Shown here one piece after another: positions 2 through 59,289 of a DNA stretch of 64,000 nt. The position numbers and the translations under genes were made by a program. This DNA is from Laetmonice hystrix (Eukaryota), in NCBI GenBank assembly GCA_965235115.1, contig OZ249436.1, positions 26,600,001 to 26,664,000 of the forward strand. Direction: 5' to 3'. The notes under the pieces are model-generated. The model made no database searches, was not told the DNA's origin, and worked only from the letters and a program-made list of their open reading frames with translations. Every line of letters starts with the position of its first letter. The first letter of the stretch is position 1.

Positions 2-1102
2 AAACTTGGCCGTATTTGCCGTCCGCATTACTTGATCCTCCATAGTGGGCCACACTGAGTTAGGTTTAAGGAAAACACGGTCTCCAAGTCTCTTGATACG
101 TAAGGGGTCATTTTCAAGCATGATTTTCCGTCCAATCGCCTCGTTACCAGTGATTTGGCATTTTTTCCATTGGAAATATTGTTCACTTGAGTTGTAGGTT
201 TCCCCATCGATGATAATTTCACAGTTATAGAAGTTTGATAGGGGAGAGTGAGCACTGTGGAAACCTACTGCAGTACTCGAAACCTGAGGGGTCATGGCCG
301 CTGATAGTGAGAGTTGGGGGGGGGGTAGAAGATCAAGATCATCGAATTTATATTTGGATTGGTTCAATACCAACATGTCCCCTTTGACCACAGCAGTTTC
401 CTTCAAGTGTCTTGCATATGAGGCTATAGCACGCATATCGGCCCGTTGTTTCCTTATTTCAGGGGGTAGGTCCTCATTGATGTAGATTTGAGAGCGTGAT
501 TCACGCAGCTTTTTGATGTTTCGCAGTACAAGATCACGAGTCCCGACTCCAAAGAAACGCACCAGTATTGGTCTCGGTTTATTGTTGAATGATAGACCAA
601 ATCTATGAGTCTTATCAATGTCCGAAGACTTTATGTCCAGACCTAATTCATTGTTTAGGAGTTGAAGCACTGGGTCCAATACAGTGGATTCCCCAGTTGT
701 CTCAGGCATCCCTTCTATGACTATGTTATTTTTACGGGAGTAAGTTTCTAGCTGAAGGATATGTTGTTTAGCACAGGTTAGTTCACGTTGAGCTGTTGCA
801 TTTTTCGCCCGCTCTGACTTGAGCTTCTTTTGCAGTTGGGTTACAGTGGCCGCAGTAGCCGTACATGCTTTAGTGGTAGTCTTTACTTCATCCTCGATAA
901 TCTTTATGCTCAATCTAATATCTTCATTTTCCTTAGTGAGTTTATTCTCTAAAGATTTCAGCATGTCAGGGAGTGAGCAGAGCCGTTTTATATCAGCTGA
1001 CAACAGTTCTAACTTTCCTGAGAGGTGCTCAAACATTCGAGTTGGTTCTACCGTGCACTGTATGTGTGCACTCACCTGTGACTCTGTGTTGGTTTCGGTC
1101 AT
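2..1102 (-). CDS. LINE ORF1p-like protein (coiled coil + RRM + CTD) fused to a C-terminal NADAR/YbiA-like domain; 3' end runs off the window
   Basis: Manual translation shows no stop from 1270 to 2 (ATG at 1102, 367 codons in window). Coiled coil (KSLENKLTKENEDIRLSIK...QLQKKLKSERAK). L1-ORF1-type RRM/CTD motifs LETYSRKNNIVIEGMPE, DIDKTHRFG, KPRPILVRF, IYINEDLPPEIRKQR, VKGDMLVLNQSKY. Then NADAR motifs GFHSAHSPLSNFYNCEIIIDGETYNSSEQYFQWKK...IKRLGDRV...W...VMRTANTAKF. Confidence 0.85.
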   Translation of the reverse strand, partial: MTETNTESQVSAHIQCTVEPTRMFEHLSGKLELLSADIKRLCSLPDMLKSLENKLTKENEDIRLSIKIIEDEVKTTTKACTATAATVTQLQKKLKSERAKNATAQRELTCAKQHILQLETYSRKNNIVIEGMPETTGESTVLDPVLQLLNNELGLDIKSSDIDKTHRFGLSFNNKPRPILVRFFGVGTRDLVLRNIKKLRESRSQIYINEDLPPEIRKQRADMRAIASYARHLKETAVVKGDMLVLNQSKYKFDDLDLLPPPQLSLSAAMTPQVSSTAVGFHSAHSPLSNFYNCEIIIDGETYNSSEQYFQWKKCQITGNEAIGRKIMLENDPLRIKRLGDRVFLKPNSVWPTMEDQVMRTANTAKF

Positions 1103-1314
1103 ACTGTCTGAGTCTTGATCCAGGTGAGGGTCCCGGGTGTCTGAGGTGTTTCGTAATTTCCTCGGTTTTTTCCTTGTTTCCCACTCATTTTTGGAGATCC
1201 GTGTGCACTGGAGATTTATACTGTTGTATGAAAAATCATGTTGGTCGGAGTTAACTATATCCTTCACATTTCAGTGAGTTTTCACCTCTGCCCTGCCACT
1301 GCCACCTAGCCAAC

Positions 1315-1326
1315 GGCAGCCATCTT
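1315..1326 (-). promoter_or_regulatory. YY1-like motif, probable 5' end/internal promoter of the ORF1-NADAR element
   Basis: The minus strand reads AAGATGGCTGCC about 220 nt upstream of the ORF1-like ATG; AAGATGGC motifs are typical of LINE 5' termini. Confidence 0.45.
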
Positions 1327-2300
1327 GTATTCGAAGAACTTACTTTCGCTGGCAGAGAGCCTTAAAATAATGTGCTGCCTCAAACATATTCGACCTGCGA
1401 AATGGTCTCGGATATTTGATCTTAAATAAGGCTGGAATTACTGGTGTGCTACATTGGTCGGAACTGTATACAACAAGTTAGCAATATTAACGTTTAACAT
1501 GATTCGATTACAATGCATGCAGTTATTGTGCTCTGTCTTTTCGTGATCACGACCGTCTTGCTTTGTTCCAATTAACGAGGAATTTTTAAAACTATTCCTT
1601 GAAACAGTCAAGTTAATTCTACAGCCAAGCGCATACCCCCGCCGGATGACGGAAAGATAAGTGAAAACCAAATGGCCAGATTAACAGACACTATTGATCC
1701 GATTATAGTTTAGCTCAACCCGGAGTCGGTTCTCCGCTTCGCTGCTGACTATACACAGAAAATCTCAGCGGGCACAAACTACTCAAATATTCGTCAATCT
1801 GAGTAGTTTTGTCTACTCAATCCAAGCACCTCAAAAGGAGTAGTTTTGGGTACTCAAATCTTCCTGTCTGACGGAGGTAAACTCGTCAATTCGTCAAAAA
1901 TTCGTCAGAAACTCGTCATCATTTGTAAATAGGTGTTATAATTTCTTTTCTTTTCTGAACCAAGAGAACGCAGTCCAGTACTGTTAAGGGGGACTTATAT
2001 ACCTGAAACAGAGGGCGTCATTTTTATGGATTACGTGTAAATACAAAGGAATTAAGCAAAATCAACTTTGAAGAAAAAAAGAAATACAAAACATGTCTAT
2101 TTCAGATAGATTTTAATGTAACCCTATTACAAAGGTCACATCCATTCAGTATCCAGTATGCTCAAATTAATTATCGTTCAAATATTTGTCTATTGACTAA
2201 TCTAGATTCGTCAATTTAACGAATGCTATTCGTCATATTGACAATATTTTGTATTATTACAAAACTTTGATGTTTTACAAGTATGTATGAAAATACCAAC

Positions 2301-5249: not shown

Positions 5250-6049
5250 TACACTTTTAAAAACTTCCAGTGCAATGAGACGAAGTCTTTTCAAGTGTAT
5301 CGCTATGTATAAGCCTCAACGCCCTTTCCTGTATGCACTCCATTTTCTTCGTGCTTACCTGTGGCGCAGAAGAGCCATACAATGGGACAGTAATTAAAAT
5401 TGGCTAAAATGAAGGCGTTATAGATCTTCATCTTGTCCTTCACATTGAATGCGCGCTTGAACCTTCTAAAAAATATGTTGAGCTGCCTGGAGGCTTTCTT
5501 GCAAATTTGATCCATATGTCGGTCAAACGACAGTTTAGAGTCTACTATAGTGATTCCAAGCTTCACGTAATCCTCATTCTGTAGTTTATTTCCATCGATA
5601 GTGATAAACTCGGGCGTTTCTGTTACATTGTGGATGGACTTCATGTACATGACCTGGAACTTGTTCGGGTTGACTTTCATGTGGTTTACCATGAACCATC
5701 TGATGGCATTATCCGCATCAAGTTGCAGTGCTGTGGTCACCATATTGAAAGTCCCCTCACATGCGCTGAGGGTATTATCATCCGCGTAGTTAGCAAGGTC
5801 ACACTTTTCCATAAAGTAGAAAATATCGTTAATAAAGATATTAAAGATGATCGGCCCAAGACACGATCCGTGAGGGACACCCTTACTTGTCTGTGCCCAG
5901 TTACTTCTCTTGTCGCCTATCTTCACTCTCTGCATATAAGTTCTGACAAGTAATTGCCGATGAATCGGCATGCACTGCTGCTGAAGCCGTAGGCCTACAG
6001 ATGAGGAGGCTGTGTGGTACACAGTCAAAAGCCTTTGATAGATCCATAA

Positions 6050-6373
6050 TGCCCCAGTCCCATATACGCACGGATGGACACGGCAGTCCCGGAAAGTGCC
6101 GGATCCCGCCGGATCAAGATCCGGGACGATCCTTGCTCTTTTGGGGGTTTTTGAGCGGTGGCAACACGGCAGCTACACGGACGAACCCGTACAAACACGG
6201 ACAAACACGGCAGCAAGCAACAGGGCGCCCACACGGATGACCAAGGACCGTCCCGGACATTCACGGCAGAGCGACGGACTAACATGGACCAACACGGCAG
6301 AGACACGGACAGCCCCGGATAAACACGGACTTACACGGCGTGTACACGGACCATCCCGGACCTACACGTAGGG
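6050..6373. mobile_element. PIF/Harbinger-like MITE fragment inserted in the RT
   Basis: Splits RT VGTLL|MDLSKAF; taa duplicated at 6047-6049 and 6374-6376; internal acacgg repeats. A matching right TIR is not evident. Confidence 0.55.
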
Positions 6374-7011: not shown

Positions 7012-8139
7012 ACATGTAGAATACTGACAGGCCTGAAGTTATCCCTCGACATGATGTTGCCTTTTTTGAATAATGGCGATATCTCGGCAAACTTCAAATC
7101 CTTAGGGAAGACTTCCTGAGAGAAGCTGGAGTTGATAACCGCTGTTAGGCCTTCCACGAGCTCGTTGGACGCATACTTGATGAGCTTGGGGGGGGGGGGA
7201 TGAGGTCGTATCCTGTGGCCTTATTGGGGTTCACCTGCTGTAGCCTCTTTGTGATAGTCTCTGAATCGACTGGTCTGAAGTTGAAGATGGAGATGTCGTT
7301 AACATCCCGGGTGGTCTGTACACTGGGATGGCTCTCGTGCCTGTGGAGGACGGTGTCCAGCCAATCAGGGTCATCGAGAGGGATACTGTCATCTGGTCCG
7401 ATGTCGCTGACAACATTTGTATAATAGTCATTGAAGAGGCTGCACACCTCGGTTGGGTTGCTAACTATATTCCCACCTTCATTAAGGATGATGTGACCTT
7501 GATCGTATGATGTGCTTGATAAGAAAGGCTTAATACATTTCTAGAAATCGCCGGGGGTTGACTCTGGTGAGCATCTGGACACGAAGTACATCCTAATGGA
7601 ATCCCTCCGCATGGCCGTGGCTGTATTTCTTTCTATTCTGTACTTTAATATTCCAATTGTGGGTTGTTCTTTGTTTCAGGTATTTATTCCTGGCATTGTT
7701 TAGCCGGTACATCTGCTTGCGTAGGTTAGAGTTCATGTATGGCACATTGTTTGACCTTTGGACACGTTTCTTGATGGTTGCATGGTCATCGATTAGATCT
7801 CTACATAGCTTGCTCATGAACCAATACTGATCGTCGACATCATCAAAAACTTCCATAACATGAAAAGGTGCATGTGACATGTTTTTATATGAACGATACA
7901 CAATGGTTTTAGGTGTCGTGCGAGGCGAATGCATTTTGGTTATGCAACCCACCAAGTTATGCCAGTCACTCATGCCGCACCGAATATTCAATGGTGCGTG
8001 AAAACGGTTGGGGTTTATCACAACTACTGGGTCAAGTAGGGTACCAATAACACATTTGTAACACGTGGGGCGGTCTATTAAGTTTGTTAGCCCGTAGACA
8101 TTAAATAGGTCACTCAAAGGGTTAGATGCTTCCATTAAG

Positions 8140-8386
8140 TTCACATTCACAACGCCCAACATAACAATCTCTTTCGTTTTTTCATTTTCTTCGTGCTTAC
8201 CTGTGGCGCAGAAGAGCCATACAATGGGACAGTAATTAAAATTGGCTAAAATGAAGGCATTATAGATCTTCATCTTGTCCTTCACATTGAATGCGCGCTT
8301 GAACCTTCTTAATATGTTGAGCTGCCTGGAGGCTTTCTTGCAAATTTCACATTCACATCGCCCAACATAACAATCTCTTTCGTTTT
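8140..8386. repeat. Self-templated insertion: copy of 5341-5508 flanked by a 41-bp direct duplication
   Basis: 8183-8347 matches 5341-5508; ttcacattcacaWcgcccaacataacaatctctttcgtttt occurs at 8140-8180 and 8346-8386. Confidence 0.9.
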
Positions 8387-9034
8387 GGCCCCATTTAACA
8401 GGTCGTTATAGAAACGTGTCAGTGTATCAATGAACACATGATTAGGAACCTTTGGATTTTTGTAAGTGACCAACAAGTACCACTGCTCTTTCTTTATAGT
8501 CAGATTGATGACCATTGATTCAGTGTGGTAGTTGTCGACTTGGAATTCAAGATCACTGTCTCTGAAGTGCGGTATATCGGACCTGATCCAGGCGGCCAGT
8601 CCTCCAGAGTTCATCTGTCTGTCTTTCCTGTGAAGCTTGTAGCCGTCAACATCAAGGTCGTGGGTTACATATTCGTCTGACAATTTAGTCTCAGTTATGC
8701 ACAGAATGTCTATCAGGTTATTTGACAGCAGTTATCTGAAATAGTCGCGTTTTTCTCTCAGGCTATTTACATTTACATGTGCGAATATAAGGTTTCTGCC
8801 ATATTTTGATCTGCTTAGTCTTAAACTCTGTACGAGATCATCACAACATTCTGATGTGCTGTGTGTACTATCCCTAGAGAGCAGTGAATGATCGATATAA
8901 CTGTCGCTGTCATCTGATGTATTTGATGCAGTATCTAGTATGTCTTGAGAGTCATGGGTGTGTTGAGATTCCGGGGTAATTGCTAGGAGTGCGTGTTCCT
9001 CGTTGGTGTCGGCACTCTCTTCGTGGCCGGGGAC

Positions 9035-10234
9035 CTAGTCTGTGCAGAACTTGGCCTTATGTCCAGAACGATTGCAGTTATGGCACGTTATACCCTCTGG
9101 CCATGCCTACAGGCATGAGTTACATGGTTGGATTCACCGCAATACCAGCAGCTTTTCTGGTTGTGCTGTTCCTCCGAGTTTTCACGATTGTCTCTCCATT
9201 GTGGTCTGGGCCGCCTCCTGTAGACTGTCTGCCACTCTTCGGGCTGGGTGGCCTGCCTCCGCCTATCATCGCTGTGTTCGTGGGTTGGTCTCGCCTTCTT
9301 GGATGCCCTTGTCTTGCACACGCTCACCGCGGGATCCCGGACCAGTTCTAGGTTTCTTGTCAGTCGGTTAGATCCCTTGTTGGTCAGGTGCAGGCCATCC
9401 GCCTGGAGGTAGCCATCGTTAGGAGACCCATCAGCCAACTTGAATGTGGGGTCGTTGTTAATGAAAGTTGCACCTGTGTCCTTGGCGACAGTGCACAGGC
9501 CTGCATTCAATCTCTCGACATTTTCTTGAAGTTCTGTTGAGTCGGCCCTAGGTGGTATGCTCGAGATGACTATGTTGTCAGCTTCTGCAACTTTCGTCTT
9601 GGCGATGTTTATCACCTCTCTGTGCTTGGCGGTAACTTCATCTCCGTCGAAATTTGGGCTGCTACAGTCATTGGTGCCAGCACAGATGATTATGTTCTGG
9701 CAGAGTTTTGCTCTTTCTAAATGTGTGGTTTGGGCTCCGCGACTTTGATCCCACTGTGGGACATAACATTGGTGTTTTCCAGCTTCGCCTCATCAAAGTC
9801 CTTCAACAGAGAATCGCCAATTAACAAGGTGGGTTGCGACACGCCGTTCGTAGCCTTAACGATCTTGGTTAGTTTATCGTGGAGCCCCTTATTGTCGATT
9901 CTCAGAGCGTTGCATTCTTCTTTAATTTCCTAAAGGGCTTCCTTAGTAGCATCTTGGTCGGACTTCATATTTACAACCAGACGCTTCAGTTCCACCATGT
10001 TATCGCATAGCGTCTGCATGAGACTGGGAAGCTGTCAGCAGCTCAGACAGCTCCATAATCCGATGATGTCTTCTGGGTCCGCTCCTATGCAGTCATAGTG
10101 ACACCATGTTTGACACAGGTGACACTGTACCATGTCGAAATCGTGTTGTTTAGTCTTATGCTTACAGTTTTTAACACAGAAAGCCGAGCCGCCTTGTCAA
10201 AGGGGGCTGTCCCTGTGGTATTCTGCTTCACCAT
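9035..10234 (-). pseudogene. LINE ORF1: PHD finger + coiled coil + SGNH/GDSL esterase + two CCHC knuckles (stops and frameshifts)
   Basis: CVKNC...MVQCHLCQTWCHYDC...WSCLSC; LLIGDSLL; ISSIPPR...DGLHL; CWYCGESNHVTHAC and, after a frameshift, CHNCNRSGHKAKFC then a stop at 9035-9037. Confidence 0.85.
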
Positions 10235-16222: not shown

Positions 16223-17335
16223 CTAGGTGTCATTGACTACCAATTTTTCCTCGTCCGAGGGAAGGGCTTCGGATACTTTGAGAGAAGTGTCTGTTGATTC
16301 TTCCGCCGCGACTTCGGATCGATCGCAGCCGGCTCTGGTTAACACGATGACAACAACCGCTATCATGATTGCCGAGAGAAAAGCAAAAGACGACACGACC
16401 GCCACGATCCACACGTAGCCATTCTCCATCTGATCCACTGGGGTCAGCGTCGTCTGCTTAATCACGCGACTTCTCGGCGAGACTTCTACCCGCGCCTGCG
16501 CACGCAGCGAATCAAGGAGAGCTCGTGAACGTTCAGAGAGAGGGTTATTCGTGAGGTCGACCAACCGCAGTTTGGGCGTGTTAACAAACGAGCGGTTATC
16601 GATCTCCGATATGTTGTTGTCGGCTAAATGTAACTCCTCGAGCAGTGGGGTATTTAATTCTGGGAGATATTGAATGTTGTTTAAATCTAAATACACTGCA
16701 TGCACACCGCTTGGCAGGAGAGGAAATTCAACTAGTCTGTTCCTTTCCAAACTCACAACCTCAAGGGAAGGGACATTTAAGAAATTAGCATACTCCAAGT
16801 TGTTGCTCGACAAAGACAGCAACGACAAATTATGCGTATGCTTAAAGGTTCTAGATTCTATTTTCTTTATGGCATTAAAATCAGCCACAAAATCATGTAG
16901 ATTTCTTAAGTGAAGAAGAGGTAAGCGAGAAATGTTATTCCCTTGAATATGCAATACTCTAACAGTTCCTGGTACGTAAGGGAATACATTCAGTTGATTT
17001 TCAGACAAGTAAAGATGATGAAGGTGATGTAAATGTTTAAACGCTGACGTTGATATGTCAGATATCATATTCTCTGAGAGGCGCAGGTCGATGAGGTTTC
17101 GATATGGTTTGAAATCGTACGAAGATATTTTGTCCGATTGAAACGCCACAAGCTGAAGCCAGGTGAGCATCCTTGGGAGGTTACGTGGGACGCGCGGACA
17201 GAAGCCACATTTGTAGGCGGTGCCGTGCCACACCTGAGAGACGTTGCGGCACCAGCGGCACGGATCTCGGCGGCACGTTACGAGGGAGGTGAGCAGCACG
17301 GTGAAGACCACCAGGCCTCGCCATCCGAACTGCAT
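16223..17335 (-). CDS. Type-I transmembrane leucine-rich repeat protein, 370 aa, single coding exon
   Basis: Signal peptide MQFGWRGLVVFTVLLTSLVTC; Cys-containing N-cap; about 10 LxxLxLxxN repeats; TM VWIVAVVSSFAFLSAIMIAVVVIVL; short acidic tail. The ATG at 17335 (gccATG) is preceded by a splice acceptor ttgcAG (17347-17346), implying an upstream 5'-UTR exon. Confidence 0.88.
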   Translation of the reverse strand: MQFGWRGLVVFTVLLTSLVTCRRDPCRWCRNVSQVWHGTAYKCGFCPRVPRNLPRMLTWLQLVAFQSDKISSYDFKPYRNLIDLRLSENMISDISTSAFKHLHHLHHLYLSENQLNVFPYVPGTVRVLHIQGNNISRLPLLHLRNLHDFVADFNAIKKIESRTFKHTHNLSLLSLSSNNLEYANFLNVPSLEVVSLERNRLVEFPLLPSGVHAVYLDLNNIQYLPELNTPLLEELHLADNNISEIDNRSFVNTPKLRLVDLTNNPLSERSRALLDSLRAQARVEVSPRSRVIKQTTLTPVDQMENGYVWIVAVVSSFAFLSAIMIAVVVIVLTRAGCDRSEVAAEESTDTSLKVSEALPSDEEKLVVNDT

Positions 17336-20300
17336 GGCTGGGACCCTGCAACCGCCAAGAGAAATCACCATTGAAACTTTAGGTAACGACGAAATACTAT
17401 GCATATATGGTAAGGCATGCATGTAAAGTGTCAACCACTTTGTTAAACCATTGTCACTATAAACGTATTTTATACACAGCCGTTGTATGGGATGTTTACT
17501 TATTTGTGTGCCATTTTAGCAGTCATAAAATCATATCCTGACTTCCTTAGTAATAGTTGGGTCTCCCAAACAATACAATCCAGTGAAACTTTATTACAAA
17601 GTTTATTATAACTGTGTGTATCATACATGAATTTGATTGGGATGGCATGTAATTATTGATAGACTGTTGCCTTTATGATGCTGATTCGTTTTAAGACGTG
17701 CATGTCTGAAGTATATCAAGTCAGACATCGTAAAATTACGGAAACCAGTCCGTGCCATGGGGATGCATGGAGAATATTTAATTTCTGACTAAACATTGTT
17801 TTTTGTGGGGTGTCTACATAAAGTGTTTCTGCGCTCACATTAAATATGTTTTCTCCCCACTTCAACATGGGGCACGAATGGGCATTCGTTTGAAACAGAC
17901 GCTAAAATTTAAACAACAATAAAAATGAGTAATGCCTATTATATGTCTATGTACTCTCTCTGTATGTTTCCAAGATGTCTCTACATTTAAATGACCTTGA
18001 ATCGAAGAACGTGATGAAAACGTTTTCAATGCTGTACATAATATTAATGAAAGTTAGAATTTCCCATTACCTAATCAAAACTGTCTTCATCGGCCAGTAA
18101 CTATTATATCAGCTCTCTTCAAGATTGATTGAAGATTTATACTGCATCTTGCATGAGTTTTTGCTTGGATTTTGGTTTCCATTTCAGTAATAATACTGAA
18201 GGTAGTCAGCTATTTTAAATATTGTTTCATCAGACCTGAGATAACGAGCCAGGGGAATGAGATTCTAATACCGCCGACATTAACGTGCTCGGGTGAGGTA
18301 AAGATGAACTAACACAAAGAAATACCCTCAGTGCATCTACTTCGACACGGTACTTTGTGTTCCCAACTGATGCAGTCAAATTGTAATACTCCAATTCAGA
18401 GTTTTTTAATCCTCAACATTGTTGCCTGTAATCACTCCTCATTCCAGCAGCACGCTCTATTAAATCTCCAATACTCTTAAACTTTTTAGAAATGGTAAAT
18501 ATGAAATGCTGATAGTTTGGTTAAGTGCTTTAAATTACGTAGCCTCCTTGATCGGATCCGCCCATCTTTGCTGACATTGAACTTGAAAATATCCTATAAA
18601 TACACAGTCAGTCCTTCCATTATACTATATAGCTATATAAATTCCTAGAATTACACTAGACAATGAACGATAGCGTTAATTACTAATTAAACCAACACAA
18701 TTCAGAACATGACGTCTTCTGACAAGATAGAGGCTAGAAATATAGCAGCAAAAGGTCACCTTCCAATATTTCCTAGTAATTTTATCGGAACATGCCATGG
18801 AGTCATCATAAAGATCAGCTCTGCCATCCACTTCACCTTTTATCGCCCACTCTGCAATAAAACTCTTTCCCAAGTCTACATCCATGGATTACTTCTCATA
18901 AATAATCAGGTACGGTGTTTAGTTCGTGCTGTTAAATCACTAACTACCTTTGCATATAACTACTGTCGTGAAATTCACTTTCACACTTAAATTACAAATA
19001 CACGTCTACCTATTTCCCCCTCCGAGGTCCTGTGGAATATCCCATGTTCGTTTGAAAGCCTCTGAATTCATTCAAACGCAAAAATGATACTAATTTCCAT
19101 GCGTGATGCCAAAGAAGATAGCTGTCTGATAGTCGTGGCAACGTTGCCATCGCTGCCCTATAATTAAATCACCTCTTAAATTGCATTCTAGCAATGAAGC
19201 GAAAGACGACTTCACCATCATATTACATATTATATATAGATAATGTACACACAGCATTGGCTGCTTACAACATGCGTTCATGCTTCCTCTAAATGCCTAT
19301 CGATTGGTAACGGCTATAGGGAAGAAGTCGATGTAATGTGATTTAATGTAACACCGCCCACTTCACATTCCCAGCTTGAACGAAGATTTTATACATCCAG
19401 GTGATTGAGATCTTATCATTCCAACTGTCAGGAACACGTACCGTACACCGATCCCTGGTAACTAGAACACGTAGAGCGTACCATAAGCTGATTAACCGGG
19501 TCGACTCTAACCCCGCTACAGATTAATTACTGCCCATCACTGGTGCGATAGTATGTGACACGGAGGGCGTGCATGAGCAGAAGAATGATGGTATGTCTTC
19601 ATCAAATTCCCATATTGCACTAACAACATTCATATCGACTGCCGGGATCTTTTTTATGGGGAAAATTAGCCTTATAGTTAAAGAACCGTCTCAGATAAAT
19701 AGAAACCATTTCTCAAGAAATGGCCAGAGTGACGTATTTCTACTTAACTCTGACCTATTTCATGGTCAGAAAATAATGGCAAACGAAGACCAAATAATTC
19801 TCTCCCTCTTTTAATAATGAGGAAGAGCTCCTTTACCCAAGGCCAAATGCAAACCCTTTGAACTGTCAATACTAACACAAGGTACAAAATATTATAATGA
19901 ACTGATAGAAAAAATTGATATAAATTGCTTAATATATACATATAAAAAGAAATTGTCAACCTTTCTAATGAGCACTATATAGGATCACTTTTCTATGTTG
20001 TTACAATTAACTGTTATAATCAACCTTGCCCCATTGTACAGGCATCCCATATAACATCCCCGTTGTCCATAAGTTCTTATATAGGCCTACTTATTCTATT
20101 ATACGCCATATATCGTTACAAATATAACACTTGTATCTTGATCAGGGATACCATAAGCATATAGCTTCATTTCCCTAATTAAATATACCGCAAATGATGT
20201 ATGTATATAATGGATTAATAAAATGATTGATTGATTGATTGATTTACCATGCATAAAAATAAACCATTCATATTTCAAACCTAATCATAATTACATTTTC

Positions 20301-28240: not shown

Positions 28241-28645
28241 CAGACAATCAGCTCAGCATGCCGACAAGACTAGTGTTAGCGAATTGTATCAGAACAATAT
28301 CAGAGAGATATAGCTAAAATAACCGCTGGCGTTTAGGATCTAAGGTGCCCTTTCCATGCACTTTCCTTAATATGTATTATCTTGAGGTGAACGATGCGGA
28401 TCCCTTCAGACGTAATCCACACAGAGTTTACAGCCGCTGGCCCTCACATTGGATGGTATGAGGAAGGGGAGGGGCGGGTGTCATATGCTTTTGACGCGTG
28501 GTAAACCGCGGGGACATGTTCTTTCATGTGCACGGCCATGGGACCTAAACATCTGTTACAGTTGGCAGGGCCAGAGAATTGCACTAAACAACTTCAAAAT
28601 CAGAGGCACCAATCTACAGCGCGCAGGCGACAGTCGATTGCGGTG

Positions 28646-29326
28646 AAGGGGCGTGGTGTTGGAGGGGTGCGGGTACGTGTTGGAGGGGTGTGGTGTTGGA
28701 GGGATGTGGTGTTGGAGGGGTGTGGTGTTGGAGGGGTGCGGGTACGTGTTAGAGGGGTGTGGTGTTGAAGGGGTGTGGTGTTGGAGGGATGTGGTGTTGG
28801 AGGGGTGTGGTGTTGGAGGGGTGTGATGTTGGAGGGGATGCGGGTACGTGTTAGAGGGGTGTGGTGTTGAAGGGGTGTGGTGTTGGAGGGGTGTGGTGTT
28901 GGAGGGGTGTGGGTACGTGTTGGAGGGGTGTGGTGTTGGAGGGGTGCGGGTACGTGTTGGAGGGGTGTGGTGTTGGAGGGGTGTGGTGTTGGAGGGATGT
29001 GGTGTTGGAGGGGTGTGGTGTTGGAGGGGTGCGGGTACGTGTTGGAGGGGTGTGGTGTTGGAGGGGTGTGGTGTTGGAGGGATGTGGTGTTGGAGGGGTG
29101 TGGTGTTGGAGGGGTGTGGTGTTGGAGGGGTGCGGGTACGTGTTGGAGGGGTGTGGTTTGGAGGGGTGCGGGTACGTATTGGAGGGGTGTGGTGTTGGAG
29201 GGGTGTGGTTTCGGAGGGGTACGGGTACGTGTTGGAGGGGTGTGGTGTTGGAGGGGTGTGGTGTTGGAGGGGTGCGGTGTTGGAGGGGTGCGGTGTTGGA
29301 GGGGTACGTGTTGGAGGGGTGTGGTG
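28646..29326. repeat. G-rich minisatellite of mixed 16/21-bp units
   Basis: ggaggggtgtggtgtt interspersed with ggaggggtgcgggtacgtgtt. Confidence 0.95.
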
Positions 29327-29425
29327 ACGCCCAATGTAGTGACGAAGTATTTCGCATGTTCTGAGGTCACTTACCGCAAACAGAAGGATGCGCAGAAACT
29401 ACTTCAGGTAAACACAAAACCTCGT

Positions 29426-51308: not shown

Positions 51309-53228
51309 CAACCCGATCTTCACGTTACACACTGTAAGTGGGACCCGATCTTCCAGTTTCAAACTCCAACCCGATCTTCACGTTACACACTGTAAGTGGA
51401 ACCCAATCTTCTAGTTTCACACTCCAACCCGATCTTCACGTTACTCATGGCAACCAGAACTACGCGTACACACTCCAACCCGATCTTCACGTTACTCATG
51501 GCAACCAGAACTACGCGTACACACTCCAACCCGATCTTCACGTTACTCAGGGCAACCAGAACTACGCGTACACACTCCAACCCGATCTTCACGTTACTCA
51601 GGGCAACCAGAACTACGCGTACACACTCCAACCCGATCTTCACGTTACTCATGGCAACCAGAACTACGCGTACACACTCCAACCCGATCTTCACGTTACT
51701 CATGGCAACCAGAACTACGCGTACACACTCCAACCCGATCTTCACGTTACTCATGGCAACCAGAACTACGCGTACACACTCCAACCCGATCTTCACGTTA
51801 CTCATGGCAACCAGAACTACGCGTACACACTCCAACCCGATCTTCACGTTACTCAGGGCAACCAGAACTACGCGTACACACTCCAACCCGATCTTCACGT
51901 TACTCAGGGCAACCAGAACTACGCGTACACACTCCAACCCGATCTTCACGTTACTCAGGGCAACCCGAGCTTGCGTCACACACTACAACCCGATCTTCAC
52001 GTTACTCATGGCAACCAGAACTACGCGTACACACTCCAACCCGATCTTCACGTTACTCAGGGCAACCAGAACTACGCGTACACACTCCAACCCGATCTTC
52101 ACGTTACTCAGGGCAACCAGAACTACGCGTACACACTCCAACCCGATCTTCACGTTACTCAGGGCAACCAGAACTACGCGTACACACTCCAACCCGATCT
52201 TCACGTTACTCAGGGCAACCAGAACTACGCATACACACTCCAACCCGATCTTCACGTTACTCATGGCAACCAGAACTACGCGTACACACTCCAACCCGAT
52301 CTTCACGTTACTCAGGGCAACCAGAACTACGCGTACACACTCCAACCCGATCTTCACGTTACTCAGGGCAACCCGAGCTTGCGTCACACACTACAACCCG
52401 ATCTTCACGTTACTCAGGGCAACCAGAACTACGCGTACACACTCCAACCCGATCTTCACGTTACTCATGGCAACCAGAACTACGCGTACACACTCCAACC
52501 CGATCTTCACGTTACTCAGGGCAACCAGAACTACGCGTACACACTCCAACCCGATCTTCACGTTACTCAGGGCAACCAGAACTACGCGTACACACTCCAA
52601 CCCGATCTTCACGTTACTCATGGCAACCAGAACTACGCGTACACACTCCAACCCGATCTTCACGTTACTCAGGGCAACCAGAACTACGCGTACACACTCC
52701 AACCCGATCTTCACGTTACTCAGGGCAACCAGAACTACGCGTACACACTCCAACCCGATCTTCACGTTACTCAGGGCAACCAGAACTACGCGTACACACT
52801 CCAACCCGATCTTCACGTTACTCAGGGCAACCAGATCTACGCGTACACACTCCAACCCGATCTTCACGTTACTCATGGCAACCAGAACTACGCGTACACA
52901 CTCCAACCCGATCTTCACGTTACTCATGGCAACCAGAACTACGCGTACACACTCCAACCCGATCTTCACGTTACTCAGGGCAACCAGAACTACGCGTACA
53001 CACTCCAACCCGATCTTCACGTTACTCATGGCAACCAGAACTACGCGTACACACTCCAACCCGATCTTCACGTTACTCAGGGCAACCCGAGCTTGCGTCA
53101 CACACTACAACCCGATCTTTACGTTACACACTGTAAGTGGGACCCGATCTTCCAGTTTCAAACTCCAACCCGATCTTCACGTTACACACTGTAAGTGGGA
53201 CCCGATCTTCCAGTTTCATACTCCAACC
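51309..53228. repeat. 51-bp minisatellite (about 33 copies) capped by related units of about 56 bp
   Basis: Unit ctccaacccgatcttcacgttactcaKggcaaccagaactacgcgtacaca. Confidence 0.97.
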
Positions 53229-53230
53229 TT

Positions 53231-53396
53231 CACTGGCCCGGCCGGCCGGCCGGCCGATTTAGTAATTTCACCGTTATGATTGGCCGTAAAATCAAAAATC
53301 AAGAATACATGATTTTATGTTTTCTATGTAATGCATTCTTGATTTTTGTCCAACACGGTCAACCATACCAAAATCGGCCGACCGGCCGAGCCAGTG
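53231..53396. mobile_element. Small CACTG-terminal MITE
   Basis: cactggcccggccggcc...ccgattt versus reverse complement cactggctcggccggtcggccgattt. Confidence 0.7.
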
Positions 53397-53523: not shown

Positions 53524-55146
53524 GGCCACTTAAAATTAATAAATTGTTTTACATGGCCGGCCGCCTCAATTTTTTGGCGCCGCCTCGATTTTTTTTATAT
53601 TTTATATTTTTCAAAAAGTCCGTTTTTTTCATCCCCAAAACCGTCTCCCACAGTTCTGTCAGGGTGTTACAGTTAAAGTGACCCTCAAGGTATAGAAGGG
53701 CTGTACAAAATGTTGAGATAATGGGGTCATTGCACAAGATTGGCGACGGCTGTCGCCGTATGGCGACGGCTGTCGCCATACGGCGACAGCCGTCGCCGGG
53801 TGGACGGCGATGGCGACAGCCGTCGCCGGGTGGACGGCGATAGCGACAGCCGTCGCCGTGTGGCGACAGCCGTCGCCGTGTGGCGACAGCCGTCGCCGTA
53901 TGGGGACACCCGCCCGTACGGTAGGGTTCCGTACTTTGACGGTCCGTTTCGGTCCCTGCCCTGGACCGAGGCGGTCCCATTGTGGGTCCATAAGGTATAT
54001 CTCCGTCCCTTCTTTCTTTGTAGGGTCCGTTTCGGTCCATACCTGGTCCCCTAGGGTCCGTTTCAGTAGGGTTGTGTACTTTGACGGTCCGTTTCGGTCC
54101 CTGCCCTGGACCGAAGCGGTCCCATTGTGGGTCCATAAGTATATCTCCGTCCCTTCTTTCTTTGTAGGGTCCGTTTCGGTCCATACCTGGTCCCCTAGGG
54201 TCCGTTTCAGTAGGGTTGTGTACTTTGACGGTCCGTTTCGGTCCCTGCCCTGGACCGAGGCGGTCCCATTGTGGGTCCATAAGGTATATCTCCGTCCCTT
54301 TTTTCTTTGTAGAGTCCGTTTCGGCCCATACCTGGTCCTCTAGGGTCCGTTTCAGTAGGGTTCCGTACTTTGACGGTCCGTTTCGGTCCCCGCCCTGGAC
54401 CGAGGCGGTCCCATTGTGGGTCCATATGTCGATCCCTTCTCTCTTTGTAGGGTCCGTTTCGGCCCATACCTGGTCCCCTGGGATCCGTTTCGGTAGGGTT
54501 CCGTACTGTGACGGTCCGTTTCGGTCCCTTCCCTGGACCGAGGCGGTCCCATGGTGGGTCCATAAGGTATATCTCCGTCCCTTCTTTATTTGTAGGGCCC
54601 TTTGGTCCATACCTGGTCCCCTGGGGTCCGTTTCGGTAGGGTTCCGTACTTTGACGGTCCGTTTCGGTCCCTGTCCTGGGTCGAGGCGGTCCCATTATGG
54701 GTCCATAAGGTATATCTCGGTCCCCTCTTTCTTTGCAGGGTCCGCTGGGGGGGTCTAAGGGCATCCACCCGAAAAGTTTTGATATTGACAGCCGTCGCCA
54801 TCCCGCGACAGCCGTCGCCGTTCCGCGACAGCCGTCGCCGTTCCGCGACAGCCGTCGCCATCTCTACTTGTGCAATGCAAGCCGTCGCCATCTCTAGTTG
54901 TGCAATGCAAGCTATCGCGGCCCATCTCGCCGTTCCGCGACCGTCGCGGAACGGCGATTTTGGCCGCGACAGCCGTCGCCAATCTTGTGCAATAGGCCCA
55001 ATGAGAAATTAAAAGTATTTTTCCAGTAATGGTGATCTCTGCTGTCCTTCTTCTTGTCGAGGAAAATTATAAAATATAAAATGCCCTACTCACCAACATT
55101 TCAGAAGTTGGGGTCATGTAAAACAATTTATTAATTTTAAGTGGCC
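53524..55146. mobile_element. PIF/Harbinger MITE hosting the first 1.28-kb element
   Basis: 32-bp TIR ggccacttaaaattaataaattgttttacatg; TTA TSD (53521-53523, 55147-55149). Confidence 0.85.
53720..55000 (+). mobile_element. Young non-autonomous TIR element, copy 1 (1281 bp)
   Basis: TIR ...attgcacaagattggcgacggctgtcgc; subterminal ggcgacagccgtcgcc arrays; central tandem repeat of about 145 bp, about 5.6 copies. Confidence 0.85.
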
Positions 55147-55237
55147 TTAAATGTTATATATTAAAAGATTCTCGAGTTCAATGAAATGTTATACCGTATC
55201 GTGTATAGGTAACCCATGTCAATAACACTAAAGACAT

Positions 55238-56515
55238 TGGGCCTATTGCACAAGATTGGCGACGGCTGTCGCGGCCAAAATCGCCGTTCCGCGACGGTCG
55301 CGGAACGGCGAGATGGGCCGCGATAGCTTGCATTGCACTAGAGATGGCGACGGCTTGCATTGCACAAGTAGAGATGGCGACGGCTGTCGCGGAACGGCGA
55401 CGGCTGTCGCGGAACGGCGACGGCTGTCGCGGGATGGCGACGGCTGTCAATATCAAAACTTTTCGGGTGGATGCCCTTAGACCCCCCTAGCGGACCCTGC
55501 AAAGAAAGAGGGGACCGAGATATACCTTATGGACCCATAATGGGACCGCCTCGACCCAGGACAGGGACCGAAACGGACCGTCAAAGTACGGAACCCTACC
55601 GAAACGGACCCCAGGGGACCAGGTATGGACCAAAGGGCCCTACAAATAAAGAAGGGACGGAGATATACCTTATGGACCCACCATGGGACCGCCTCGGTCC
55701 AGGGAAGGGACCGAAACGGACCGTCACAGTACGGAACCCTACCGAAACGGATCCCAGGGGACCAGGTATGGGCCGAAACGGACCCTACAAAGAGAGAAGG
55801 GATCGACATATGGACCCACAATGGGACCGCCTCGGTCCAGGGCGGGGACCGAAACGGACCGTCAAAGTACGGAACCCTACTGAAACGGACCCTAGAGGAC
55901 CAGGTATGGGCCGAAACGGACTCTACAAAGAAAGAAGGGACGGAGATATACCTTATGGACCCACAATGGGACCGCCTCGGTCCAGGGCAGGGACCGAAAC
56001 GGACCGTCAAAGTACACAACCCTACTGAAACGGACCCTAGGGGACCAGGTATGGACCGAAACGGACCCTACAAAGAAAGAAGGGACGGAGATATACTTAT
56101 GGACCCACAATGGGACCGCTTCGGTCCAGGGCAGGGACCGAAACGGACCGTCAAAGTACACAACCCTACTGAAACGGACCCTAGGGGACCAGGTATGGAC
56201 CGAAACGGACCCTACAAAGAAAGAAGGGACGGAGATATACCTTATGGACCCACAATGGGACCGCCTCGGTCCAGGGCAGGGACCGAAACGGACCGTCAAA
56301 GTACGGAACCCTACCGTACGGGCGGGTGTCCCCATACGGCGACGGCTGTCGCCACACGGCGACGGCTGTCGCCACACGGCGACGGCTGTCGCTATCGCCG
56401 TCCACCCGGCGACGGCTGTCGCCATCGCCGTCCACCCGGCGACGGCTGTCGCCGTATGGCGACAGCCGTCGCCATACGGCGACAGCCGTCGCCAATCTTG
56501 TGCAATGACCCCATT
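55238..56515 (-). mobile_element. Young non-autonomous TIR element, copy 2 (1278 bp, inverted)
   Basis: Reverse complement of 53720-55000 with two substitutions and one 3-bp indel seen. Confidence 0.85.
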
Positions 56516-56695
56516 ATGTACCTTAACACACACCACAGTACTCGTTCTAGACGCAAAACAAGGGGACAAGTACATGCGTACCATGGTGCCACTAGCACCC
56601 TTATGGTCCCTTATTGGCCCATTTGTACAGGCACGCGCGCGCAGGTCCATTACGTCCACGTTAGTAGGCGGAAAGAAGTTCTTTACATTGGACTG

Positions 56696-59289
56696 GGCCC
56701 TGTTTCATAAACCACGACCAAAATAGAACGATAATTCTTAAAAAAAAATCGTAGCAGGAACGATAATCGTTACGATATATCGTCGGTTCCGTTTCATAAA
56801 GTGCATCGTTGAAGAAAATCAAAATCGTTACATATTTGAAAATCGTTCCTCGACCCTGGGTAAGACCACCGGGAACCAGTTGAATGAACTGAATAGTGAC
56901 GTCAGGAGGGGAATTCCGGGAATACCCCCTTGACACACGCTTGTTCTGCCGTATGTACGTACGTCCGTATGTCCGTAGACAGCGATTTCTCAGGGTATAT
57001 CGCCCATGATAACTTAAACCCCACGAAATTTGGTGGAAAGTAAAGATCCATATAGCCCTGACCTTATCCTTACCCCTAACCCCAGTCCCTACACCTCCCA
57101 AAAACATATCCCTATCCTATCCCTATCCCTATCCTTGACCTTAACCCTAACCCCTGCCCAAACATTTCGTGGAAAGTTATCATGGGGGAAGAACCTTTCT
57201 CAGAAGTGTATGGGTCGATTTCTTTGAAACTTCACACAATGATCAGGGATGATCTGAGTATGATGCACGTCAAACAGATTTTTGATATCCGTCAAAATGG
57301 CCGCGTGGTGGCCATCTTGGATATAATCTCATTTGGAGCAATAACTCAGACAAAACGATCCCGATTTCTTTCAAATTTGGTAGAAAGAAGGTGCATATGA
57401 GGGGCAACGAATATGCCAATGTATTCCCAGATCAGAGCAAATATGGCGACATATTTGGCTCGTATCTCGAAAACGGTGCAAGATAAGGCAATAGTTACTA
57501 TTATTGACAGATAGGAAGTCATATATGAAGTTTCATTTGGCGCCATTTCCCATGACCTTGAGCGACCTTGAAAGGTCAATCAAGGTCATGCATATTTTAA
57601 TGGCCTGTACCTCCAAACCAGTTGAAGATAACAACATCTAATCTTGCATGAAATATTATATAATAACCAGGGACAGTCTAAGGAGGACACAGGTCAAACA
57701 TATCATTAAAAATGGCTGCTTGGTGGCCATCTTGGATATGAAGAAATTCGAAACAATAACTATGACTTTTCCTGTCCTTCTTTCTTGAAGGAGGCAGAAG
57801 GCATGAGGGGCAACAAGCGTGCCAAAAGTACACATAGTTCCTGGACCCACAGATAATTAGTCCCTACTCAGTTGGTGGGTTGTGACTCTGACGGGGTCTG
57901 GTGAAATTTACTAATATTATTAAAAATTGAGAGAGAAAATCATGAATTTCCATGAATTTAACTAACCTCCAAAGGTCAATCAAGGTCAAGCATATTTGCA
58001 ATCGCCTGTATCTAGACAAAACACTTCACGTCGGATAACTGTACATAACTGCATAGTTACTATAAGATGCGGACGAAGTACATACGAAGTTTCATTTGGC
58101 AATATTTACTTTGCCCTTCAAAGATCCATTGAAGTCGTGCATCGTTTCTTCAAGAATCCATAGTTCTTGGTGGGGGCTATAAGCTTCACAAGCTTGTTTA
58201 TAATGGGCTGGTATGGTAAAAAAACATAAGTAGTTGGGCGACCAAGTATTTCTGCTGAATGGAAAAGACTACACCGTATAGACCTATAGTAGATAGTAGG
58301 GCTAGTACTAAGACTTAGTGCTTGTTATCCGGTAAATAAAGGATAAAATCATGTAGGCCTACATTGTAGGCATACATGTCTTATGTTTTGCCCTCCACAA
58401 GAAACCCCATGTCCCGGATGCTCCCAGTAAAGAGCACAAAGAACACAAAGAGAAGAAAAAGTCATCATCTCCCAAGATAAAGCACAAGATGAGAGAGGCA
58501 CAGTATGGACTCCCTCAATATCCGTCACCTTCCCTACGGCCCGGCTAACGGTGGGCTTGCTAACACCCTATAGAGGTCGCTCAGAACTCTGTAGTTGGGC
58601 CCTGTCGCGTAGTAGCACAGGGCCAAACACATCTGCAAAATGAGGAAGGGGTTATTAACATATTTTTTAGTGAGTTAGTTTTAGGCCTACACAGCTGATA
58701 TAGGCATCTTAATTACTTTAAGAGGAATTACCCTATTTAAGAAGTATACCTTACTTATTTCTAAGTAATACATTTGGGAAATTTTGAATAAATGTTAGGT
58801 TCTTGACACAAATTCAAGCTTTGACTATATGCATGATACTACTTGGGTCGCCGGACGTTGAGCAAAACGGCGAGTCTTCATATGTTCTTGAAAGGGCGAT
58901 CACTGACTCCTTGTCCATCCGATACCGTTTCCCGAATAAGTCGCCGTCAAACCTATTAATTGGGTCTATTCGCGCGAAGAACCACCGACGCCTCCTTCTC
59001 CCCTCCATAAATGACGGTTGTAGTAAAATTCCGCCAAAATTCACTCATTTCGTGTTTTTATATTATCCTACGACAACCCTCGGGGTGGTCGTGGCCAACG
59101 ACTATTTTCGAGGAAATAACGATTGAAAAAAAGCCAAGAACGATTTTATGAAACACTTGAGCGATTTTTCATTTGGTCGTGACAAATTTATCGTTCTTCG
59201 ACAAAAACGATCTTTTATGAAACAGAATCTATCGTACATCGACAATATGATTAAATCTAAAATGTAAGATTTTTGTATGAAACAGGGCC
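56696..59289 (-). mobile_element. Harbinger deletion derivative with a HARBI1-like transposase N-terminal remnant (58889-59008)
   Basis: TIR ggccctgtttcata; CTG TSD (56693-56695, 59290-59292); MEGRRRRRWFFARIDPINRFDGDLFGKRYRMDKESVIAL resembles the HARBI1-type R.F..R..P...D...F..RYR....I..L start. Confidence 0.7.
56920..58198 (-). mobile_element. Helentron/HINE-like insertion(s) inside the Harbinger derivative
   Basis: aacaag start on the minus strand at 58198 with tatagccccc, (tccg/tacg) microsatellite near 56960, and gaccttga/aaggtcaa motifs. Confidence 0.45.

Follow-up and report, generated by a model that had tools for sequence, protein, structure and literature searches.

A NADAR domain has previously been noted in the Gypsy Pol of Ectocarpus and, in a single sentence, in the ORF1 of oyster Tx1 elements, with its role given as unclear in the passages concerned (PMC12477816). 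This was the sole paper in the literature searched in which NADAR, Tx1 and ORF1 occurred together, and its passages on these elements contain neither copy numbers nor an analysis of active site or selection and do not mention exchange of ORF1, in contrast to the data presented here. Type II ORF1 (types IIA-C) has been described in CR1/L2 elements along with horizontal acquisition of ORF1, and the accessory domains listed in the relevant sections of that work are PHD, esterase, CCHC and zf/lz (PMC4120745). Outside retroelements, NADARs remove ADP-ribose from guanine (G-ADPr) in DNA and RNA, and the YbiA-type enzymes also act on C-ADPr and not on phosphate-end ADPr, according to the relevant parts of PMC11543638, PMC11125620, PMC11833690 and PMC12945103. 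Both YbiA and a phage NADAR failed to give rescue from DarT1 (PMC11125620), so that activity in vitro does not fix the substrate in vivo. Orphan NADAR antitoxins are found in T4-like phages (PMC11825919), and in invertebrate RNA viruses, picornaviruses of annelids and bivalves among them, NADAR takes the place of Macro (PMC9503650).

We analysed a stretch of 64,000 nucleotides (the window; C1:26600001-26664000) from the 627-Mb, 35-contig genome of Laetmonice hystrix. The window begins with the 5' end of a young LINE of about 5.5 kb on the minus strand (1328-1), which continues past base 1 (Table 1). A preliminary description of this DNA had proposed an intact minus-strand frame in which an L1-ORF1p-like protein runs into a NADAR domain. 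The frame is indeed open over 423 codons (1270..2), and the NADAR profile PF08719 matched its residues 340-423 above the cut-off (E 1.3e-11). Among solved structures, the frame matched 8bau and 2b3w. Past base 1 it continues for 62 codons, with the motifs LVEAT-RDGHWG-GQNKLG, before a stop, and on the extended frame the profile matched over positions 9-162 of 163 (E 5.8e-28, 98.6 bits against a cut-off of 35.1). The first part of the open frame, 1270 down to about 1190, belongs to the 5' UTR, and the only long frames within the LINE were ORF1 and ORF2. The word intact was not borne out, since the start codon used by the family is no longer in frame with ORF1 in this copy, and an 849-bp MITE splits ORF2. 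The ATG is out of frame because the A-run at 1171-1166 is one base shorter than in both sister copies and in contigs from two of the four sequencing runs; the short run may represent a frameshift near the N-terminus of ORF1, an assembly error being possible. The MITE, a non-autonomous DNA element at L009:7215-8063, has terminal inverted repeats, and its TA/TATA target is duplicated.

Table 1. Positions of the features of the LINE at the start of the window and of related loci elsewhere in the genome (window coordinates unless a contig or locus is named).
Feature	Position	Strand	Evidence or remark
LINE 5' UTR	1189..1328	-	5' terminus at 1328, where identity to the C11 copy stops
AAGATGGC motif at LINE 5' end	1319..1326	-	sequence
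ORF1 family start codon (probable), out of frame in window copy	1186..1188	-	in-frame ATG in C11 copy
A-run, 6 A, one base short of sister copies	1166..1171	-	comparison of copies and run contigs
ORF1 from first in-frame ATG (1102)	2..1102	-	62 more codons past base 1; 429 aa in total
Coiled coil, approximate	737..1039	-	long helices in low-confidence single-sequence model; weak coiled-coil Pfam matches
RRM and CTD, L1-ORF1p (type II, Tnp22) fold	281..748	-	profile match to 2yko/2ykp/2ldy/2w7a; Foldseek
YbiA-type NADAR, N-terminal part	2..253	-	Pfam, alignment to 8bau, Foldseek
NADAR E323 (=8bau E43)	184-182	-	
NADAR K330 (=K50)	163-161	-	
NADAR W367 (=W89)	52-50	-	
NADAR E403, D407, W410	directly past window base 1	-	frame extension
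LINE remainder (NADAR end, spacer, APE-RT ORF2, 3' UTR, AATAA-(CATT)n tail)	past base 1, ending at C1:26594942	-	
Gypsy-type NADAR carrier	L048:2815-7794	+	
Gypsy-type NADAR carrier	L049:2255-7201	-	
Gypsy-type NADAR carrier	C7:33146742		
Type II ORF1 ending in IMPACT/YigZ (UPF0029)	L193:4639-5829	-	
Type II ORF1 ending in IMPACT/YigZ (UPF0029)	L157, L158, L159, L165, L191		

The preliminary description had pointed to a downstream ORF2, a tail and a target-site duplication as marks of a mobile element. The APE-RT ORF2 and the (CATT)n tail were found; a target-site duplication was not, the insertion having replaced 7 bases at its target. A sister copy on C11 is 99% identical to the window LINE from end to end over about 5.5 kb; its ORF1 has a 7-bp deletion, and its ORF2 is an open frame of 1037 aa with a match to RVT_1 above and to Exo_endo_phos below the cut-off (E 8e-4). 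Copies that are 5'-truncated and have the same 3' end are located on C19, C10, C30, C7 and C3. Contigs from three of the four runs, all from one sample, join the 5' flank straight to the 3' flank and so represent an empty allele of the site. These runs also contain the filled junction, at a similar depth, and the insertion therefore looks heterozygous. The mobile reading was thus upheld, and the alternative of a domesticated, single-copy ORF1 gene is ruled out by the sister copies, the dispersed 5'-truncated copies and the empty allele. Two further, different 5' flanks meet the LINE at its 5' terminus in contigs from the sequencing runs (loose ends L001:2829/2830), which point to further full-length copies.

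An L1-type element is also ruled out: the ORF2 of the window family (P0004) had no match to human L1 ORF2p at E<=0.001, in contrast to the ORF2 of L054, which matched it at E 1e-108. No zf-RVT was found in the window-family ORF2 by Pfam scan. The LINE is called CR1/L2-type here on account of its split from the L1-type RTs in the RT tree and of traits that we take to mark that type, namely an ORF2 of about 1000 aa with neither zf-RVT nor RNase H, a microsatellite tail and the lack of a target-site duplication. The last 430 bp of the family are also contained in a tandem array at C3:13632676-13696724, with a period of about 1.77 kb and more than 30 units. In a rearranged copy (L003 / L012-L013, C5:32219528-32220607) ORF1 breaks off inside NADAR, with inverted and displaced pieces of ORF2 on its flanks. 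Near the sister copies we noticed by eye a long open LINE ORF2 bearing RNase H (L011:6908-10000, minus strand) and a Penelope-like RT with a GIY-YIG-like tail (L012:373-2321, plus strand).

To quantify the spread of the domain, we searched the genome with the NADAR profile; of 741 candidates 150 were scored, all above the cut-off, which gives at least 150 loci. Sister copies of the window family lie on several contigs. Internal stops were present in 4 of the 150 NADAR matches listed. A Macro profile gave 5 exon-like matches only, as against the 150 or more NADAR loci, and the NADAR expansion is therefore specific. Eighty of the 150 listed loci, picked for variety and not at random, were read. 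An RRM was located upstream of NADAR in 69 of these, and the downstream RT was of CR1 type in 54 and of L1/Tx1 type in 20, with zf-RVT in an example of an L1/Tx1-type ORF2; two lay inside a Gypsy-type Pol and four had no RT downstream. From frames of 380-600 codons (n = 54, window copy included) we defined 44 ORF1 families at <85% identity. The AAGATGGC motif at the 5' end of the LINE, which we take to be a 'YY1-like' motif, is probably an internal promoter element, and AA[GA]ATGGC upstream of ORF1 showed a modest enrichment, with 14 of the 44 families having it in sense and 6 in antisense orientation.

For the reverse control we used an RRM query. Among the 150 matches listed, 85 adjoined a NADAR of the first list, to which a further one was joined manually; 60 of the remaining 64 were fetched, 50 with NADAR and 10 without. 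In all, NADAR was located directly behind 135 of the 146 type II ORF1 loci examined (136 with the locus added by hand), a fraction that is biased upward because the RRM query came from a NADAR family. Of the 10 loci without NADAR, five have UPF0029/IMPACT at its position and five appear to be interrupted. Outside this genome, in the protein collection, 142 of the top 150 clusters matched by the profile contained both the RRM-CTD and the NADAR half, and 134 of these 142 were <50% identical to any ORF1 sampled in L. hystrix; the Atlas entry 'commonest Annelida' for the clusters rests on 1-3 records. Arrays of 2-7 tandem NADAR domains without an RRM were observed in the proteins P0020, P0021, P0024, P0025, P0050, P0113, P0140 and P0158.

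Novelty, as had been implied for the fusion, holds in part. The relevant passages of PMC12477816 already place a YbiA-family NADAR in Repbase families of Crassostrea gigas Tx1 ORF1, to which the 20 loci preceding an L1/Tx1-type ORF2 correspond, and in the Ectocarpus Gypsy Pol. The window element and the 54 CR1-type loci differ from the C. gigas elements in their non-L1, CR1/L2-type ORF2. Not found in the literature searched were the non-L1 carriers, the scale and the swapping described below, neither NADAR in CR1/L2 elements nor exchange of ORF1-NADAR being mentioned there; Repbase may hold such families.

In the Gypsy-type Pol, an open frame of 1660 aa, NADAR follows the protease and precedes the RT, and a second Gypsy-type family, 64% identical, spans the same NADAR region. 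Gypsy relatives 64% and 48% identical in the RT had no NADAR among the matches listed. This shows that the insertion into the Gypsy-type Pol was separate from the LINE cases. The arrangement also differs from that in the Ectocarpus Gypsy lineage IV, in which the relevant passages place NADAR at the N-terminus of Pol (PMC12477816), and it occurs in an animal genome. The 8.5 kb examined around the Gypsy-type NADAR elements yielded no LTR pair, and a weak, length-limited search of the protein collection gave no PR-NADAR-RT relatives among 4459 candidates of 913-2905 aa. UPF0029 had 25 matches genome-wide, and at L193 the IMPACT-bearing ORF1 is followed by a PHD-APE-RT ORF2. The literature searched had no mention of IMPACT in a LINE ORF1, though families of this kind may be present in Repbase. 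With UPF0029 in five of the ORF1 loci and Gypsy relatives that have no NADAR, the domain is dispensable in some lineages; type II ORF1 has an interchangeable accessory slot at its C-terminus, taken by NADAR or by IMPACT/UPF0029. A Tc1-like transposon (DDE_3, HTH_Tnp_Tc3_2) was observed inside the ORF2 of the IMPACT-bearing LINE (L193:1531-2603, plus strand).

We predicted the fold of ORF1p from an alignment of 43 of the 44 family representatives, leaving out L081 with its internal stop. The alignment-based model (pLDDT 96.7, pTM 0.88) superseded a poor single-sequence model (pLDDT 40.6). Foldseek matched it to 8bau (E 4e-10) and E. coli YbiA (2b3w, E 4e-9), with a TM of 0.73 by target, as well as to human L1 ORF1p (2yko, E 3.6e-7). 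A profile of the 43 families gave the same two-part answer, NADAR and L1 ORF1p, when searched against solved structures (2yko/2ykp, E 7e-11), although a Pfam scan of the single window protein had no match in the L1-ORF1p-like N-terminal half. The likeness to YbiA and to L1 ORF1p that had been read from short motifs is thus corroborated. Profile, model and Foldseek agree on the type II layout of a coiled coil, a single RRM and a CTD, which is common to the window protein and to type II LINE ORF1p (human L1 ORF1p, 2yko; Tnp22), the former having an extra C-terminal enzyme domain.

The window protein keeps the equivalents of E43, K50, K75, G78, W89, E125, D130 and W133 of the Phytophthora NADAR 8bau, whose active-site residues are defined in the relevant part of PMC11543638; all but G78 are, like the fold, also common to E. 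coli YbiA. In the alignment, E403 corresponds to the last-strand glutamate E125, D407 to D130 and W410 to W133. Besides its fusion to ORF1p, the domain differs from YbiA and 8bau in that D357 and E371 replace the phosphate-binding R79 and R93, which are ligand contacts and not family-defining; R79 varies among relatives. Across the 43 representatives, with a mean NADAR identity of 38%, E43 and W89 were invariant (43/43), K50 was K in 38 and R in 3, and E125, D130 and W133 were kept in 38, 42 and 41, respectively. The E125 equivalent is apparently His in four families (L066, L091, L093, L103), as in phage NADARs. Among the outside relatives E43 was present in 142/142 and E125 in 140/142, the R93 column being unreliable due to gap placement. 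The NADAR on ORF1p is, to judge by its residues, catalytically conserved, with its putative activity taken from that of other NADARs. It is Glu-type, not Asp-type (BC4488) as in the DarTG1 and ART-NADAR pairs. A toxin-antitoxin pair of the DarTG1 type is ruled out by this and by the lack of a long frame beyond ORF1 and ORF2.

L1 ORF1p coats the RNA of its own element, and every RNP would therefore carry many NADAR domains beside the template. The reading that we favour, with as much confidence as doubt, is that ORF1p, as a type II RNA chaperone with a C-terminal NADAR N-glycosidase, would bring an active enzyme to the element RNA, and that the RNP would free the bases of its RNA or cDNA from ADP-ribose. 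NADAR would cut the N-glycosidic ADP-ribose bond on G or C of the RNA, the nascent single-stranded cDNA or the target. Base ADP-ribose lesions would stall reverse transcription or translation, and their writer would be either an ADP-ribosyltransferase that the host uses for restriction or a toxin of microbial origin. Given its position between protease and RT in the Gypsy-type elements, the step common to all carriers would be reverse transcription of RNA. The viral NADARs, of T4-like phages and invertebrate RNA viruses, likewise pair a selfish element with an eraser of base ADP-ribose; the writer is known for the phages (DarT1), whereas none was found for the window LINE.

The enzyme could instead act on ADP-ribosylated protein, on small immune signals derived from ADP-ribose or, as a YbiA-like housekeeping enzyme, on reactive nucleotide metabolites, dampening the host response near the RNP. 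YbiA of E. coli cleaves riboflavin intermediates and the targets of orphan NADARs are described as open in the relevant part of PMC11543638, soluble ADPr derivatives have been proposed as substrates (PMC9503650), and the R79 and R93 positions of the window protein are acidic. We consider this rather unlikely, since tethering to an RNA-coating ORF1p, and the position in Pol between PR and RT, would better suit a nucleic-acid substrate, and G-ADPr was hydrolysed by all NADARs assayed in the relevant part of PMC11125620. Unlikely, too, is that NADAR serves mainly in RNA binding or processing as a fourth structural domain of ORF1p, with catalysis secondary, in the manner of the NADAR protein SNA-3 in trans-splicing, which provides the precedent (PMC11125620). 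The model packs RRM-CTD and NADAR together confidently, and processing of RNA intermediates has been suggested (PMC12477816). The invariant columns, however, are the catalytic and ADPr-binding ones, and human L1 ORF1p chains match the RRM-CTD half only, which indicates that type II ORF1p works without NADAR.

We estimated synonymous and nonsynonymous differences for 20 between-family pairs chosen at >55% identity. The pS values of NADAR were 0.74-0.92, which is saturated, with pN values of 0.19-0.32; those of the RRM were similar, and the window family and its nearest relative had a pS of 0.79 and a pN of 0.31. These comparisons show NADAR on ORF1 to be under purifying selection; within-family values, which had been filtered at pS>0.02 and are biased for that reason, were left aside. 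That the domain is a neutral passenger captured once is hardly credible and refuted by this selection signal. The RRM and NADAR trees agree, so that all the LINE cases could go back to a single ancient capture, but synonymous sites are saturated while the active site is conserved across 44 families, internal stops are rare among the NADAR matches listed, and the insertion into the Gypsy-type Pol was separate.

We also compared trees of the RT and of ORF1. The RT tree comprised 36 families and one outgroup, seven without a long RT match being left out, and a long, fully supported branch parts the L1/Tx1-type from the rest. In contrast, the ORF1 tree mixes L1/Tx1-type and other families. By AU tests on quick trees (LG+G4), a single clade is rejected at p 2.5e-5 for the seven Tx1-type ORF1s; for those of the window RT group, 19 in number, it is rejected at p 5.9e-7. 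For individual pairs, identities were 59% in ORF1 versus 25% in the RT for L053/L054, 63% versus 35% for L108/L111, and conversely 38% versus 97% for L055/L074, in which a nucleotide identity of 94.6% stops in the spacer. The same ORF1-ORF2 linkages recur in second copies (L074/L090, L055/L068, L054/L089, L111/L127), and these are therefore families and not chance neighbours. The strong conflict between the trees implies that the ORF1-NADAR module has been swapped between LINE superfamilies, and since L1/Tx1-type and other families are mixed in the RRM tree and the NADAR tree alike, ORF1 is transferred in its entirety, as a single module. The data thus show, in a clear-cut example, that L1/Tx1 and non-L1 lineages have exchanged the whole of ORF1.

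The suggestion of the preliminary description that the domain serves counter-defence is plausible; the conserved active site, the presence in three retroelement classes and the purifying selection count for it indirectly. An eraser kept in dozens of retrotransposon families suggests that base ADP-ribosylation exists in host cells and acts on retroelements; according to the relevant part of PMC12945103, endogenous ADP-ribosylation of guanine and cytosine in eukaryotes cannot be excluded. Tentatively, and with more doubt than confidence, we suggest that some host enzyme may restrict retroelements by ADP-ribosylating bases of their RNA or cDNA, and that ORF1-NADAR may be a counter-defence cassette that spread by swapping through most LINE families with a type II ORF1 in two superfamilies, the Gypsy-type elements having acquired it on a separate occasion. 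If so, animals would have a further line of immunity against transposons, and among the 'metazoan NADAR genes' of databases there may be ORF1s of retroelements. Profiles for writers of the pierisin/Scabin-like, Tox-ART-HYD1 and ART families (PF22596, PF15633, PF01129) gave 0 matches in the genome, with the positive controls also silent, so that this is no proof of absence; a PARP profile had only 14 exon matches.

The lack of an endogenous writer in these same searches, silent controls included, would also suit the idea that the elements are kept because NADAR shields the host from microbial toxins that ADP-ribosylate guanine or cytosine, a role as a shield against actinomycete toxins having been proposed for metazoan NADARs (PMC12945103). 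This is very improbable, as the copies are ordinary young mobile LINEs, often truncated or broken, and not one of the 80 loci that were read could be shown to be a domesticated gene, 4 of them having no RT downstream. The ORF1-NADAR domains are ready reagents, and a substrate trap, for finding the writer.

Elsewhere in the window, decayed LINE pieces were observed on the minus strand at 9091-9789, 5306-6172 and 7596-8405, one of which has SGNH-esterase-like motifs and would thus be an ORF1 of the esterase type. An open frame of 430 codons at 16226-17515 on the minus strand is, by eye, probably a host-gene exon with leucine-rich repeats. Long tandem repeats occupy 28559-29398, 51338-53276 and 53552-56723, and the segments 53552-54863 and 55372-56723 form an apparent large inverted duplication.
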